From Escherichia coli O157:H7 (GTDB taxonomy: Bacteria; Pseudomonadota; Gammaproteobacteria; Enterobacterales; Enterobacteriaceae), in assembly GCF_013167455.1 (NCBI RefSeq), contig NZ_CP038328.1: DNA of 64,000 bases; one strand, 5' to 3'. Under the pieces are notes generated by a model. It ran no database searches. It was not told the origin of the DNA and worked only from the letters and a program-made list of their open reading frames with translations. A program made the translations under genes and the position numbers. Numbering within the stretch: position 1 is the stretch's first letter; each line of letters begins with the position of its first letter. Below are positions 23,465-52,670 of this stretch, piece by piece.

Positions 23465-24769
23465 ATGCACGCGCGTTCAGCGAGAGAAATTAATCAATGC
23501 TACCGGACATTACGTCCGCGATTGCTGATGTGCATGATTATTGGCTACGCCGCATTTTATCTGACGCGAAAAAGCGTGAATTACGTCCTTCCGGCGCTAC
23601 AAACCGACCTCGGACTGGATAAAGGCGACATTGGCCTGCTGGGTTCGCTGTTTTATCTCAGCTACGGATTGTCGAAATTTACCGCCGGACTGTGGCATGA
23701 CAGCCACGGACAACGCGGTTTTATGGGCGTCGGCTTGTTCGCCACCGGGTTATTGAACGTGGTGTTTGCCTTTGGCGAATCACTTACGCTTCTGCTTGTG
23801 GTCTGGACACTGAACGGTTTTTTTCAGGGCTGGGGATGGCCACCGTGTGCCCGCTTGCTGACCCACTGGTACTCACGCAATGAGCGCGGTTTCTGGTGGG
23901 GCTGCTGGAATATGTCGATCAACATTGGCGGAGCGATTATTCCGCTGATTAGCGCCTTTGCCGCCCACTGGTGGGGCTGGCAGGCCGCGATGCTGACACC
24001 GGGGATAATCAGCATGGCATTAGGGATCTGGTTAACGCTACAACTCAAAGGCACGCCCCAGGAAGAGGGATTACCGACAGTTGGTCACTGGCGTCACGAT
24101 CCGCTGGAGTTACGTCAGGAACAACAAAGTCCGCCGATGGGGCTGTGGCAAATGTTGCGCACCACCATGCTGCAAAATCCGCTGATCTGGCTACTGGGCG
24201 TCTCATATGTACTGGTTTATGTGATCCGGATTGCGCTTAACGACTGGGGCAATATCTGGCTGACGGAAAGCCACGGTGTCAACCTGCTCAGCGCCAACGC
24301 CACGGTAATGCTGTTTGAAGTGGGCGGCTTACTCGGCGCGTTATTTGCCGGATGGGGATCGGATTTGCTGTTTAGCGGGCAACGAGCGCCAATGATTTTG
24401 CTGTTCACGTTGGGGTTGATGGTGTCAGTCGCCGCACTGTGGCTGGCACCGGTTCATCACTACGCTCTGCTGGCAGTGTGCTTTTTTACCGTGGGCTTTT
24501 TCGTCTTTGGCCCACAAATGCTGATTGGACTTGCGGCGGTGGAGTGTGGGCACAAAGCTGCGGCGGGTTCAATCACCGGATTTCTCGGCCTGTTCGCTTA
24601 CCTTGGCGCGGCGCTGGCAGGCTGGCCGCTGTCGCTGGTCATCGAACGCTACGGCTGGCCGGGAATGTTCAGTTTACTCTCGGTCGCCGCAGTACTTATG
24701 GGTTTACTGCTGATGCCGTTACTGATGGCGGGCATCACCACCACTCACGCTCGAAGGATAAAACAATGA
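23465..24769 (+). CDS. UhpC-like MFS membrane sensor (organophosphate:Pi antiporter family), about 434 aa
   Basis: 12-TM MFS protein with strong resemblance to UhpC (FYLTRKS..., GPQMLIG...). Start at 23465 preferred over 23453 because of the RBS. Confidence 0.85.
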   Translation: MHARSAREINQCYRTLRPRLLMCMIIGYAAFYLTRKSVNYVLPALQTDLGLDKGDIGLLGSLFYLSYGLSKFTAGLWHDSHGQRGFMGVGLFATGLLNVVFAFGESLTLLLVVWTLNGFFQGWGWPPCARLLTHWYSRNERGFWWGCWNMSINIGGAIIPLISAFAAHWWGWQAAMLTPGIISMALGIWLTLQLKGTPQEEGLPTVGHWRHDPLELRQEQQSPPMGLWQMLRTTMLQNPLIWLLGVSYVLVYVIRIALNDWGNIWLTESHGVNLLSANATVMLFEVGGLLGALFAGWGSDLLFSGQRAPMILLFTLGLMVSVAALWLAPVHHYALLAVCFFTVGFFVFGPQMLIGLAAVECGHKAAAGSITGFLGLFAYLGAALAGWPLSLVIERYGWPGMFSLLSVAAVLMGLLLMPLLMAGITTTHARRIKQ

Positions 24770-25797
24770 AAATGACCTTTACCTCTACTCTGATTGCTTC
24801 TGCCGTTGCGCTGGCGACTTTAACGGGTGCCGCGCAGGCAAAAGGCCGGCTGGTGGTCTATTGCAGCGCCACCAATGAAATGTGTGAGGCCGAAACCAAA
24901 GCGTTTGGCGAGAAATATGATGTAAAAACCTCGTTTATCCGCAACGGTTCCGGAAGCACCCTGGCAAAAGTCGATGCTGAAAAGAAAAACCCCCAGGCTG
25001 ACGTCTGGTACGGCGGCACTTTAGACCCGCAATCGCAGGCTGGCGAGATGGGCCTGCTACAGGCGTATAAATCCCCTAACCTTGAGCAGATCATGGAGAA
25101 ATTCCGCGATCCGGCAAAAGTGAAAGGGAATCTGTCCTCTGCCGTTTATGTGGGGATCCTCGGTTTTGGCGTAAACACCGATCGTCTGAAAGAGAAAAAC
25201 CTGCCGGTGCCGAAGTGCTGGAAAGATCTCACCAAACCGGAATATAAAGGCGAAATTCAAATTGCCGATCCGCAAAGTTCCGGTACTGCCTACACCGCCC
25301 TGGCTACTTTTGCGCAGCTGTGGGGGGAAGATCAGGCCTTTGATTATCTAAAACAACTGAACGCCAACGTCTCTCAGTACACCAAATCAGGCATAGCCCC
25401 GGCACGTAACGCCGCCCGTGGCGAAACGGCGATTGGTATTGGCTTCCTGCATGACTACTCGCTGGAAAAAGAACAGGGCGCGCCGCTGGAGTTGATTTCC
25501 CCGTGTGAAGGTACGGGCTACGAAATTGGCGGCGTCAGCATTCTGAAAGGCGCGCGCAACCTCGACAACGCCAAACTGTTTGTGGACTGGGTATTATCAA
25601 AAGAAGCTCAGGAACTGGCGTGGAAGAAAGGGAAGTCTTATCAGATCCTGACTAATACCACCGCCGAAACGTCGCCAAATTCGCTGAAGCTCGACGACCT
25701 GAAATTAATCAACTACGACATGGATAAATATGGTTCCACGGATGTTCGTAAGGCATTGATTAATAAATGGGTCAGCGAAGTGAAGATGGGTAAATAA
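24766..25797 (+). CDS. AfuA/FbpA-family periplasmic substrate-binding protein (343 aa)
   Basis: Signal peptide MKMTFTSTLIASAVALATLTGAAQA then SBP fold; ATG overlaps the UhpC-like stop (ATGA). The long listed ORF 24439.. is an upstream extension. Confidence 0.8.
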   Translation: MKMTFTSTLIASAVALATLTGAAQAKGRLVVYCSATNEMCEAETKAFGEKYDVKTSFIRNGSGSTLAKVDAEKKNPQADVWYGGTLDPQSQAGEMGLLQAYKSPNLEQIMEKFRDPAKVKGNLSSAVYVGILGFGVNTDRLKEKNLPVPKCWKDLTKPEYKGEIQIADPQSSGTAYTALATFAQLWGEDQAFDYLKQLNANVSQYTKSGIAPARNAARGETAIGIGFLHDYSLEKEQGAPLELISPCEGTGYEIGGVSILKGARNLDNAKLFVDWVLSKEAQELAWKKGKSYQILTNTTAETSPNSLKLDDLKLINYDMDKYGSTDVRKALINKWVSEVKMGK

Positions 25798-25865
25798 ACC
25801 CGCATTAGGCGCATTTGCCGGGTGCAGCGCAGACGCCTGCCCCGGCCAACCATACCGGAACTGCT

Positions 25866-27944
25866 ATGTCACAGACACTTGCACTCCATCCCGTGAAAAA
25901 GCGGGATGCGATTTTCCTTTGGGTTTTGCTGGGCTGGCTGGCATTTGTCCTGTTGCCGAGCTGGAGCCTCGATTATGGCCTGCTGGAATCCACGAGTGAT
26001 GAGATCCTCGGGGCGTACGGCTGGTCGCATTTTAATATCAGCTGGCTGTGGTATTTACTCCCGAGCCTGTTGCTGGTCCGCCCGTTTCGTCAGGCCACGC
26101 GCGAACAGCGTAGTCGTCATTATTTCGATGCCGGCTGGGCATTGCTCTGTATGGCGTTTATCGTCATCAGCGCCACCGTGGCTGGACGCGGTTTAGGCTA
26201 CGCCGCCATCGTGCTGTTTGTCGAACTAGGCGCGATTATGACGCTGGCCTTAACCCGCCTCGAATGGCTGGGCGGCGACCGCTTCGTGATCGGCTCACTG
26301 ATTGCGATTGTGGCGCTGATTGGCATTTTTATCGTCTGGCCGAGCATCGCCATTTTTATCCCGATGTTCACCAACGACGCGGGAGAGCTCGCCCCGCTGG
26401 CGTTTATGACCGTGCTCTCGCAGGCACATATTGTTCAGGTGATCGTCAACTCTATCGTCTTGTCGATAGCGGTGGGGATAGGCTGTGCTTTCTTCGGCCT
26501 GGTGCTGGCGATTTATACCACGCGCATCGCTAAACGCAGCGCCATTATTGGTCGCATCTTTTCCATTTTGCCCATCGTTACGCCACCGTTTGTGGTCGGC
26601 TTAGGCGTGACGCTCATGATGGGGCGTTCCGGCTATGTTACGGAATTTATGGTGGAGTGGTTTGGGCTGACCAACACCAACTGGCTGTACGGTTTTACCG
26701 GGATCTGGCTGGCACAGGTTCTGGCATTCACGCCAATGGCATTTATGATCCTCGACGGGGCCATTAAAACCATTCATCCCTCGCTGGAAGAGGCCTCCTA
26801 CACCCTGCGCGCCAGCCGCTGGCAAACCTTTAACGGCGTGTTTGTGCCGTTGTTGAAGCCCGCGCTCGCCAATGCCTTTTTAATCGTCGTGGTACAGTCA
26901 CTGGCTGATTTCAGTAACCCGCTGGTACTTGGCGGTAACTTCGACGTACTGGCGACGCAAATTTACTTCTATATTACCGGCTCGCAGCTGGATTATCAGG
27001 CCGCCAGCACCCTTGGCGCTTTCCTGCTGCTGTTCTCGCTGCTGGTGTTCTGCATACAGTATATGTGGATTGGTAAACGCTCTTACGTCACGGTTTCCGG
27101 CAAATCCTACCGTGGCGACGTCCAGCCGCTTCCGGTCACCCTGGTGTGGAGCGTGGTCGCCATACTTGCGATATGGATTGCCTTTAACGCCCTGCTCTAC
27201 GGCAGCATTTTCTACGGCAGCTTCACGGTGAACTGGGGCGTGGACTACACCCTGACGCTGGATAACTTTATCAAGCTATTTGGTCAGGGAATGAGCGACG
27301 GCGCGTGGCCTTCACTGCTGGATACCCTGCTCTACGCCGGGATTGCCGCTCCCATTACCGCTATCTTTGGCCTGCTCATCGCCTGGGTGGTGGTGCGTCA
27401 ACAATTCAAAGGCAAAAAGACCATCGAGTTCACCACCATGCTGTGCTTTGCCGTACCGGGTACGGTGGCGGGCGTTTCGTATATTCTTGCCTTTAACAGC
27501 GCTCCGGTTTATCTCACCGGAACGGCGGCAATTGTGATTATCTCGATGGTGATGCGTAACGTTCCGGTGGGTATTCGCGCCGGGATTGCAGGCCTGGGGC
27601 AGATCGACAAATCGCTGGATGAAGCCTCACTCAGCCTGCGCGCGGGTTCCTTGCGAACCATAACCCACATTTTACTGCCGCTGCTGCGTCCGGCCATTCT
27701 CTCGGCCCTGATCTACAGCTTTGTGCGGGCCATCACGACGGTCAGCGCCATCGTCTTTCTCGTCACGCCGGACACCCGCGTGGCAACCGCCTACATTCTT
27801 AACCGCGTTGAAGACGGCGAATATGGCGTAGCCATCGCCTATGGTTCGATTCTGATCGTGGTGATGCTGGCGATTATTTTCCTCTTTGACTGGCTGATCG
27901 GAGAAGCACGTATCTCCCGTTCTAAAGCCAAAAACCAGGCGTAA
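25866..27944 (+). CDS. AfuB-type ABC permease with two fused transmembrane domains (about 692 aa)
   Basis: Large polytopic protein typical of FbpB/AfuB-type permeases; ATG at 25866 preferred over the TTG-initiated listed ORF. Confidence 0.8.
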
Positions 27945-27955
27945 TGGAGCGCACT

Positions 27956-29002
27956 ATGAGTCAGAAAAATTTTGTGGAACTGCGCAACGTCACTAAACGA
28001 TTCGGCAGTAATACGGTTATCGACAATATCAATCTCACCATCCCACAAGGGCAAATGGTGACGCTGCTTGGCCCTTCCGGCTGCGGCAAAACCACCATTT
28101 TGCGTCTGGTTGCCGGGCTGGAAAAACCGAGTGAAGGGCAAATCTTTATTGATGGCGAAGATGTCACGCATCGTTCCATTCAGCAGCGCGATATCTGCAT
28201 GGTGTTTCAGTCATACGCTCTGTTCCCGCATATGTCGCTGGGCGAAAACGTCGGCTACGGGTTAAAGATGCTCGGCGTGTCGCGTAGCGAAGTAAAGCAG
28301 CGGGTGAAAGAGGCGCTGGCAATGGTGGATCTGGAAGGGTTCGAGGACCGCTATGTCGACCAGATTTCCGGTGGTCAGCAACAGCGCGTGGCGCTGGCCC
28401 GCGCGTTGATCCTCAAACCAAAGGTGCTGCTGTTTGATGAGCCGTTAAGTAACCTCGATGCCAACCTGCGCCGCAGCATGCGCGATAAGATCCGCGAGCT
28501 GCAAAAGCAGTTTAATATCACGTCGCTCTACGTGACTCACGATCAAAGTGAGGCCTTCGCGGTTTCCGACACTGTGCTGGTGATGAATAAAGGTCACATC
28601 ATGCAGATTGGCTCACCGCAGGATCTCTATCGTCAGCCAGCCTCCCGCTTTATGGCAAGTTTTATGGGCGACGCCAACCTGTTCCCGGCGAACTTTAGCG
28701 AAGAGTATGTCGATATCTACGGTTATCGCCTGCCGCGCGCGGCGCATTTCCCGGTGCAAGGTAGCGGCACCGTCGGCGTTCGCCCGGAAGCCATCACCTT
28801 AAGCAATCACGGCGAAGAGAGTCAGCGTTGTGTTATTCGCCATGTCGCCTACATGGGGCCGCAGTACGAAGTGACCGTAGAGTGGCATGGACAGGAGATT
28901 TTATTACAAGTAAACGCCACCCGTTTACAGCCCGATATTGGTGAGCACTATTACCTCGAAATCCATCCTTACGGGATGTTTGTTTTAGCGGATGCGGCAT
29001 AA
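27956..29002 (+). CDS. AfuC-type ABC ATP-binding protein (about 348 aa; alternative start 27944)
   Basis: Walker [10 protein letters not shown], signature [15 protein letters not shown], Walker B LLFDEP; GGAG RBS upstream of 27956. Confidence 0.85.
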
Positions 29003-29084
29003 AAATAGCACATAAACGGTCCCCATCTGTCTTGAGGGACCGTTCACCTGGTTAGGCTTCGGACAACAATTATTCTCCATTGTT

Positions 29085-29137
29085 ATATACTATAGGGGGG
29101 TATGCATTGACATATAGCATACCCCCCTATAGTATAT
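29085..29137 (+). promoter_or_regulatory. frmR operator/promoter: perfect 21-bp inverted repeat ATATACTATAGGGGGGTATGC ... GCATACCCCCCTATAGTATAT around an 11-bp spacer containing TTGACA
   Basis: Palindrome verified base by base; lies about 25 bp upstream of the frmR start. Confidence 0.7.
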
Positions 29138-29161
29138 TGCGTGCAGATGATGAGGTGCGAA

Positions 29162-29437
29162 ATGCCCAGTACTCCGGAAGAGAAGAAAAAGGTCCTTACT
29201 CGAGTTCGTCGTATTCGAGGGCAGATTGATGCTCTGGAACGGTCGCTGGAGGGTGATGCCGAATGCCGTGCCATACTCCAACAGATCGCTGCCGTTCGGG
29301 GCGCGGCTAATGGGCTGATGGCAGAAGTGCTTGAAAGCCATATCCGGGAAACGTTTGACCGAAATGACTGCTACAGCCGCGAAGTCAGCCAATCCGTTGA
29401 CGACACTATTGAACTGGTTCGTGCCTATCTTAAATAG
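29162..29437 (+). CDS. frmR: Formaldehyde-responsive repressor FrmR (RcnR/CsoR family), 91 aa
   Basis: [30 protein letters not shown]...; listed ORF is 7 codons longer. Confidence 0.9.
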
Positions 29438-29441
29438 CTGA

Positions 29442-30581
<1,140 letters not shown>

Positions 30582-30673: not shown

Positions 30674-31507
30674 ATGGAACTCATTGAAAAACATGCCAGC
30701 TTTGGCGGCTGGCAAAATGTGTATCGGCATTATTCCGCATCACTGAAATGTGAAATGAATGTCGGCGTCTATCTCCCACCAAAAGCTGCAGGTGAAAAAT
30801 TACCGGTGCTGTACTGGCTTTCGGGCCTGACCTGCAATGAGCAGAATTTCATTACTAAATCGGGGGTGCAGCGTTACGCGGCTGAGCACAACATTATTGT
30901 TGTTGCGCCGGACACCAGTCCGCGAGGCAGTCATGTCGCAGATGCCGACCGTTACGATCTCGGGCAAGGTGCCGGGTTTTACCTGAACGCGACGCAAGCG
31001 CCGTGGAATGAACATTACAAAATGTATGACTATATCCGCAACGAGCTGCCGGATTTAGTGATGAATCATTTTCCGGCAACGGCCAAAAAGTCTATCTCTG
31101 GTCATTCTATGGGCGGACTGGGCGCGCTGGTGCTGGCGTTACGTAACCCAGATGAATATGTCAGCGTCTCGGCGTTTTCGCCCATTGTCTCCCCATCGCA
31201 AGTACCGTGGGGACAGCAAGCCTTTGCCGCATATCTTGGTGAAAATAAAGAGGCCTGGTTGGATTACCATCCGGTGAGTCTTATTTCACAAGGTCAACGC
31301 GTTGCGGAAATCATGGTTGATCAGGGGTTGAGTGATGATTTTTACGCGGAACAGCTGCGGACTCAAAATCTTGAAAAGATCTGCCAGGAGATGAATATCA
31401 AAACGTTAATCCGTTATCACGAGGGTTACGACCACAGCTATTATTTTGTCTCCAGTTTTATTGGCGAGCATATTGCCTACCACGCCAATAAACTGAATAT
31501 GCGTTGA
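30674..31507 (+). CDS. frmB: S-formylglutathione hydrolase (esterase D family)
   Basis: 277 aa with GHSMGG nucleophile elbow. Confidence 0.9.
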   Translation: MELIEKHASFGGWQNVYRHYSASLKCEMNVGVYLPPKAAGEKLPVLYWLSGLTCNEQNFITKSGVQRYAAEHNIIVVAPDTSPRGSHVADADRYDLGQGAGFYLNATQAPWNEHYKMYDYIRNELPDLVMNHFPATAKKSISGHSMGGLGALVLALRNPDEYVSVSAFSPIVSPSQVPWGQQAFAAYLGENKEAWLDYHPVSLISQGQRVAEIMVDQGLSDDFYAEQLRTQNLEKICQEMNIKTLIRYHEGYDHSYYFVSSFIGEHIAYHANKLNMR

Positions 31508-43985: not shown

Positions 43986-44015
43986 TTTACACTCTATGCG
44001 TCCGGCTCGTATGTT
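43986..44015 (+). promoter_or_regulatory. lac promoter -35 TTTACA and -10 TATGTT
   Basis: Hexamers with 18-bp spacing as in K-12 Plac; the spacer carries two substitutions relative to K-12. Confidence 0.85.
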
Positions 44016-44021
44016 GTGTGA

Positions 44022-47134
<3,113 letters not shown>

Positions 47135-52588: not shown

Positions 52589-52670
52589 TGCCTGATGCGT
52601 TACGCTTATCAGGCCTACGAGTTCAGTGCTCTACGTAGGCCTGATAAGGCGTTCAAGCCGCATCCGGCAT
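52589..52670. repeat. REP elements between convergent cynR and codA
   Basis: GCCTGATGCGTTACGCTTATCAGGCCTAC and GTAGGCCTGATAAGGCGTTCAAGCCGCATCCGGC read directly. Confidence 0.8.

Follow-up and report, generated by a model that had tools for sequence, protein, structure and literature searches.

The frmRAB operon is the main formaldehyde detoxification operon of Escherichia coli, and its promoter (Pfrm) is widely employed as a formaldehyde biosensor promoter. A previous study by Denby et al. (2016, Sci Rep 6:38879; PMC5146963) revealed that Pfrm of E. coli K-12 carries a large inverted repeat centred at -29, which corresponds to tandem type-I FrmR sites of the form ATAC-N9-GTAT, the position of the K-12 transcription start being itself a prediction in that work. 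FrmR was found to bind Pfrm with a Kd of ~220 nM, against ~3,600 nM for control DNA, and this binding was abolished by formaldehyde treatment; moreover, transcription of frmRAB in vitro was inhibited by FrmR, an effect that formaldehyde reversed. The same authors addressed the roles of Pro2, Cys35 and His60 in formaldehyde sensing, and the release of FrmR from Pfrm via a formaldehyde Pro2-Cys35 cross-link has been published for K-12. Another study (PMC11127321) demonstrated that ATAC-N9-GTAT sites placed in a synthetic promoter led to FrmR-dependent repression, and that repression in a reporter assay was lost once Pfrm had been cut back to a point just upstream of the FrmR sites.

Two related operators have also been described. 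The frmRA operator of Salmonella Typhimurium (Osman et al. 2015, 2016; PMC4528141, PMC5016687) consists of one compact site, to which two FrmR tetramers bind, and this binding is weakened by formaldehyde. As in E. coli, it harbors a C6 tract and T/A-rich inverted repeat flanks that are required for binding; however, it is one compact site, whereas in E. coli the -35 hexamer stands between two distinct sites separated by 32 bp. The E. coli RcnR operator, found in the rcnR-rcnA intergenic region, was reported by Iwig and Chivers (2009, as quoted in PMC5146963) and is composed of tandem type-I sites, TACT-G6-N-AGTA. Like the FrmR sites, it has short AT-rich inverted half-sites on either side of a G6 tract, and a TACT-N7-AGTA frame is common to the RcnR motif and the FrmR sites (e.g., ATACTATAGTGGAGTAT in locus L011 of the survey presented below). 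Nevertheless, the RcnR sites are 19 rather than 32 bp apart, they respond to Ni/Co rather than to formaldehyde, and the RcnR G tract abuts TACT, while the FrmR sites have TATA between.

The frmR locus considered here lies in a stretch of 64,000 nucleotides (64 kb) from E. coli O157:H7, hereafter the window, to which all positions refer. Its features are as follows:

27956-29002, + strand: afuC (annotated fbpC), ABC ATPase, last gene of the O-island OI-20 (identity from PMC4546632)
29015-29044, + strand: hairpin after afuC, AACGGTCCC...GGGACCGTT, with no U-run following, not a canonical intrinsic terminator
29055-29069, no strand: right junction between OI-20 and the backbone, with clear K-12 homology from ~29070
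29085-29105, no strand: left (distal) arm of the inverted repeat, ATATACTATAGGGGGGTATGC (repeat finder)
29087-29103, no strand: distal type-I FrmR site ATAC-N9-GTAT, ATACTATAGGGGGGTAT, including the G6 tract 29095-29100 (pattern search)
29106-29116: spacer between the arms, 11 nt, ATTGACATATA, holding TTGACA
29107-29112, + strand: -35 hexamer TTGACA (consensus), between the FrmR sites, in the spacer (promoter scan)
29117-29137, no strand: right (proximal) arm, GCATACCCCCCTATAGTATAT, exact reverse complement of the left arm (repeat finder)
29119-29135, no strand: proximal type-I FrmR site ATAC-N9-GTAT, ATACCCCCCTATAGTAT, including the C6 tract 29122-29127 and overlapping the -10 (pattern search)
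29130-29135, + strand: -10 hexamer TAGTAT, within the proximal FrmR site, at 17-nt spacing from the -35 (promoter scan)
29140-29143, + strand: predicted transcription start, placed 5-8 nt downstream of the -10
29152-29155, + strand: Shine-Dalgarno GAGG, 6 nt before the frmR ATG (direct reading)
29162-29437, + strand: frmR, 91 aa, CsoR/RcnR-family repressor (Pfam PF02583, E = 3e-23)
29472-30581, + strand: frmA, S-(hydroxymethyl)glutathione dehydrogenase
30674-31507, + strand: frmB/fghA, S-formylglutathione hydrolase

A preliminary description of this DNA had noted a perfect 21-bp inverted repeat with G6 and C6 tracts, an 11-bp spacer containing TTGACA and a -10-like hexamer within the right arm, the whole lying downstream of accessory ABC-transporter genes. 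All of these elements were recovered: the repeat finder returned 29085-29137 exactly, with 21-nt arms that are 100% complementary, 11 nt between them and the G6 and C6 tracts in the left and right arm, respectively; the promoter scan placed TAGTAT 17 nt from TTGACA; and the afuC stop lies at 29002, with the palindrome starting at 29085. A search of the whole window revealed that this is its longest perfect inverted repeat with arms no more than 60 nt apart. Folded as single-stranded DNA, the 53-mer reached -21.2 kcal/mol (z = -7.5), which none of 200 shuffles equalled, and by our own arithmetic ~1e-6 such repeats would be expected in a random 64-kb sequence. On these three grounds, the palindrome is real, and a chance origin is dismissed.

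Under the same limit on arm distance, the runner-up inverted repeats in the window were found at 44009-44055, at 52605-52648 (REP-like) and at 44158-44175 (a short palindrome). The one at 44009-44055, the second-longest short-range inverted repeat of the window, has 19-nt arms that are 89% complementary (GTATGTTGTGTGAAATTGT / ACAATTTCACACAGGATAC) and encloses what we regard as the region of the lac operator O1. This operator is comparable to that of frmR in being a palindromic repressor site beside a promoter, but its palindrome is imperfect, it comprises a single site, and it belongs to an unrelated repressor family. The repeat at 52605-52648, perfect over 15 nt with a 14-nt loop (CTTATCAGGCCTACG / CGTAGGCCTGATAAG), looks like a REP-type extragenic palindrome.

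With the motif definition taken from Denby 2016 (PMC5146963) and PMC11127321, the pattern search detected two exact ATAC-N9-GTAT matches in the 64-kb window, one per arm, where 0.45 would be expected by chance. Both present the type-I organization, in which a G/C tract of 3-8 bp is found between AT-rich inverted half-sites (ATAC...GTAT), and the distance between their centres, 29095 and 29127, is 32 bp, while Denby 2016 (PMC5146963) states 31. The pair TTGACA-17-TAGTAT matched the consensus at 10 of 12 positions and was the sole promoter-like (sigma-70-like) site reported by the promoter scan in 28700-29500; the two FrmR sites bracket its -35, and the proximal one contains its -10. Since the repeat centre, here 29111, was placed at -29 from the predicted start by Denby 2016 (PMC5146963), transcription is predicted to start at ~29140. 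A divergent promoter on the minus strand was rejected, as the scan of 28700-29500 yielded a + strand promoter only, and it is also disfavoured by the gene upstream of frmR being co-directional in both O157 and K-12.

The right arm is separated by 25 bp from the frmR ATG, which is located at 29162, against 29163 suggested by an initial scan. Thus, the gene directly downstream of the operator is that of the cognate repressor, followed by frmA and frmB. The FrmR protein accession, WP_001141271.1, is common to the O157:H7 window and K-12 (identical protein), and Pro2, Cys35 and His60 could be read directly in its translation (GDAEC(35)RAIL...LESH(60)IRE). The window and K-12 Pfrm (PMC5146963) share the locus, FrmR, the two ATAC-N9-GTAT sites, the G6/C6 tracts, the -35 and the -10, and the 53-mers are identical at 52 of 53 bases, differing only by A (K-12) versus C (window) at 29118, just outside the proximal 17-mer. 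As a result of this single base change, the perfect arms of K-12 span 19 bp and its loop 15 nt.

The exact sites, their overlap with the promoter, the downstream FrmR, the near-identity with K-12 and the data of Denby 2016 (PMC5146963), together with the conserved sites in 65 of 80 frmR loci, the near-universal presence in E. coli (both detailed below) and the site transfer of PMC11127321, altogether indicate that the palindrome is almost certainly the operator of the frmRAB promoter, in which two inverted type-I CsoR/RcnR-family sites allow FrmR to shut off transcription. An RcnR/CsoR-family operator with G/C tracts had been proposed for FrmR in the preliminary description, and this was borne out by the K-12 experiments (PMC5146963), by the 52/53 match and by the shared repressor. 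Its further suggestion, that the repressor could occlude its own promoter, agrees with the overlap between the sites and the -35/-10 and with the in vitro repression reported for K-12 (PMC5146963), and the comparison with the K-12 frmR upstream sequence, which it had put forward as a check, is the one given above. The operator reading is correct and already published for K-12, and no new biology comes from recognising the O157:H7 copy. To judge from the sequence, the O157:H7 allele, with C at 29118 and OI-20 as its upstream flank, would behave as the K-12 operator does.

In the proposed mechanism, FrmR tetramers would occupy both 17-bp sites when formaldehyde is lacking, probably with one tetramer per site, both this stoichiometry and the geometry on the E. 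coli operator being modelled. The two sites, each offering a G6 or C6 tract adjoining TATA, form an inverted pair with a centre-to-centre distance of 32 bp and bracket the -35, with the proximal one over the -10, so that RNA polymerase would be barred from forming an open complex. The expression of frmR, frmA and frmB would thereby be repressed, in a case of negative autoregulation. Formaldehyde would then cross-link Pro2 to Cys35 between FrmR subunits, leading to a remodelled DNA-binding face, and, with FrmR off the DNA, the strong core promoter (10/12 consensus) would fire.

At the population level, 5,391 of the 5,426 complete E. coli genomes contained the 96-bp region 29070-29165. The window, from E. 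coli O157:H7, was 100% identical to NZ_AP018488.1 over the region. Since 3,554 of the 5,426 genomes carried the exact 53-mer, the majority allele is that with the perfect 21-bp form, K-12 being a minority variant. The variants sampled alter the inner GC dinucleotide, the spacer or the C-tract length, and the ATAC/GTAT half-sites were intact in all of them. Changes within the tracts are exemplified by strain 06-00048, whose distal G tract reads CAGGGG, and by E. albertii, whose proximal C tract reads TCCCC; the palindrome was also found in other Escherichia species. At least two genomes, those of strains G5 (L085) and ETEC1716 (L087), showed C7 instead of C6 at 29122-29127. This allele, which would give ATAC-N10-GTAT and a -35/-10 spacing of 18, may be due to homopolymer slippage or to sequencing error.

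The conservation of the operator outside E. coli was assessed in 80 frmR loci, obtained from a scan with one genome per species and covering gamma-, beta- and alpha-proteobacteria, in nearly all of which frmA lies immediately downstream of frmR. Within the 130 nt preceding frmR, 65 of the 80 loci contained an exact ATAC-N9-GTAT, against ~0.002 expected per 130 nt. In most of these 65 loci, the proximal site was located 28-58 nt before the frmR ATG, in taxa including Brucella/Ochrobactrum, Pseudorhodoferax, Variovorax, Chiayiivirga, Luteimonas aquatica and Pasteurellaceae. The proximal site is therefore old, as an exact copy precedes frmR in taxa that range from Escherichia to Brucella and Pseudorhodoferax. 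Seventeen of the 80 loci have, in addition, a distal site at a distance of 32-35 bp, all of these loci belonging to Enterobacterales, Aeromonas or Deefgea (genera Escherichia, Pantoea, Edwardsiella, Enterobacter, Providencia, Aeromonas, Erwinia, Serratia, Morganella and Deefgea). Between the two sites, all dual-site orthologues keep TTGAC (TTGAT or TTGCA in three loci), and the -35/-10 placement is conserved in other species.

Inverted orientation is the rule for the two sites, and the identity between the N9 cores of the arms ranges from 5/9 to 9/9; full identity was seen in most Escherichia and in one locus type (L011, L013 and L021), which is apparently mobile, and 5-8/9 elsewhere. In Erwinia endophytica (L019), the sites 79 and 46 nt upstream of frmR are in direct orientation, their N9 cores being 7/9 identical when compared directly and 2/9 when inverted. 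This arrangement argues that the long palindrome is dispensable for the dual-site layout and, together with the variable arm identity, that selection acts on the 17-bp sites and not on the long palindrome itself; concerted evolution of the two arms had been considered and was set aside. From these comparisons, the 17-bp sites are the conserved functional units. The ancestral proximal site was duplicated in inverted orientation, and the long perfect palindrome is the extreme form of this duplication, specific to Escherichia and to the L011 type. A spacing that varies between 32 and 35 bp argues against a strict helical phasing of the two bound tetramers.

The region upstream of the operator differs between strains. 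In the window, frmR is preceded by co-directional genes for a response regulator, a sensor kinase, a UhpC-like MFS protein and a three-gene ABC transporter ending at 29002. This block fills the slot between tauA and frmR, while K-12 has yaiO before frmR, and it corresponds to the O-island OI-20, which comprises FusKR and the sugar-phosphate transporter AfuABC (PMC4546632). The ABC transporter genes (24766-29002) are annotated as 'ferric' (fbpC) in RefSeq, yet they correspond to AfuABC, for which experiments in the Actinobacillus pleuropneumoniae and Citrobacter rodentium systems (OI-20 sharing >83% amino-acid identity with EHEC) demonstrated the transport of glucose-6-P, fructose-6-P and sedoheptulose-7-P (PMC4546632). 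The RefSeq label is probably misleading. The arrangement afuC-frmR was present in 450 of 5,426 complete E. coli genomes. Clear K-12 homology begins 15 bp upstream of the palindrome, with a weaker CGGAYAA match from ~29060, so that OI-20 ends ~16-30 bp upstream of the distal site, and upstream of ~29070 the two strains diverge into OI-20 (afuC) and yaiO; O157:H7 and K-12 thus share the operator and nothing above it. An island end within ~30 bp of the operator constitutes a natural test of the effect of the upstream flank on FrmR repression, a question to which the loss of repression in the truncated Pfrm (PMC11127321) is relevant.

No canonical intrinsic terminator was detected by the promoter/terminator scan or by hairpin inspection between the afuC stop (29002) and the operator. 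The segment 29010-29060, which includes the hairpin after afuC, folds at -18.2 kcal/mol (z = -2.6). The sole terminator-like match of the scan, 28964-28978, was treated as chance, as it lies inside the afuC coding sequence and its surroundings (28960-28995) fold at only -6.5 kcal/mol (z = -0.6). Read-through of transcription from afuC into frmRAB, which the preliminary description deemed conceivable, is no more than a conjecture, and one may speculate that FrmR bound at the operator would act as a roadblock to the incoming RNA polymerase.

A distinct allele was identified in strain FJ_Ec_21 (NZ_CP143627.1, 3528785-3528837; L003, 4001-4053), in which a K-12-type operator has its central 15 bp, GCATTGACATATAGA, exactly inverted. 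The inverted loop corresponds to 29104-29118 of the window and lies between 19-bp arms. Because the arms are identical, the full TTGACA-17-TAGTAT is found on the opposite strand, directed away from frmR, and the promoter-like site still facing frmR is only ATGTCA-18-TATATT (9/12 matches). The comparison of the flipped 96-mer with all complete E. coli genomes (5,426) revealed no carrier beyond FJ_Ec_21, the next full-length match being at 93.9%. This flip is either a rare one-off palindrome-mediated mutation or an assembly artefact.

Other explanations for the palindrome were weighed against these data. Folded as RNA, the 53-mer would pair perfectly over 21 bp (-35.9 kcal/mol, z = -7.2), and afuC and the palindrome have no canonical terminator between them, which would suit a hairpin acting in read-through RNA from afuC, where it would terminate, pause or mark the transcript for processing (e.g., by RNase III), insulating frmRAB. 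However, the stem tail, UGCGUGCAG, presents no U-run and fails the intrinsic-terminator pattern, a nearly identical element is found in ~4,900 genomes without afuC upstream, and the position of the palindrome is fixed relative to frmR and not to the upstream gene. Furthermore, other species conserve only the 17-bp protein sites and not the long stem, with Erwinia endophytica having its sites in direct orientation, so that an RNA-level role is very unlikely. A Rho-independent terminator in particular was rejected, considering the 11-nt loop, the tail without a U-run, the silence of the scan at this position and the conservation without afuC. The proximity of the OI-20/backbone boundary, merely ~15-30 bp upstream of the left arm, might also suggest that the palindrome simply arose with the island junction, for instance as a mobile-element end or an insertion scar, and has no regulatory role. 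Nonetheless, the palindrome belongs to the backbone side and occurs in K-12, in almost all E. coli without OI-20 and in other Escherichia, which refutes a junction scar and leaves this origin a negligible probability.

The exact inversion seen in FJ_Ec_21 is what would be expected of a miniature invertible promoter, in which recombination or template switching between the arms flips the spacer carrying the -35 and turns the promoter away from frmR. Against this, the flipped spacer was found in one of 5,426 complete genomes, and an assembly artefact or a one-off palindrome mutation explains it equally well; no recombinase gene is annotated in the neighbourhood of the operator. Such a switch is therefore extremely unlikely, and a fimS-like system was rejected, as the repeats flank the -35 only, no recombinase is annotated nearby and the flip is limited to that single genome. 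A broader proposition combines a promoter physically reversible by exchange between the 19-21-bp arms, as seen once in FJ_Ec_21, with an OI-20 flank that couples detoxification to sugar-phosphate/fucose-regulated transcription, or that loosens repression relative to K-12. Looser or coupled detoxification in O157:H7 might follow from the replacement of the upstream DNA by OI-20 and from the lack of a canonical terminator after afuC, but the combined proposition is improbable. The palindrome is thus best read as the FrmR operator described above.

Two further groups of loci from the survey deserve mention. In a Citrobacter freundii MAG (L009), Klebsiella grimontii (L012) and Maribrevibacterium harenarium (L014), unrelated hosts share an frmR-like gene that is near-identical among them and shows 90-91% identity to FrmR, with a distal site of N10 spacing. 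Neither frmA nor frmB was found within 2.5 kb downstream of the frmR-like gene in these three loci, and the gene looks like a mobile FrmR-type regulator of something else. In Tatumella spp. (L022-L024, L027 and L028), a compact single operator, ATACTATA-CYCCCA-TATAGTAT, is located ~50-56 nt upstream of frmR; it contains two ATAC-N9-GTAT frames with a 5-bp offset and resembles the Salmonella type.
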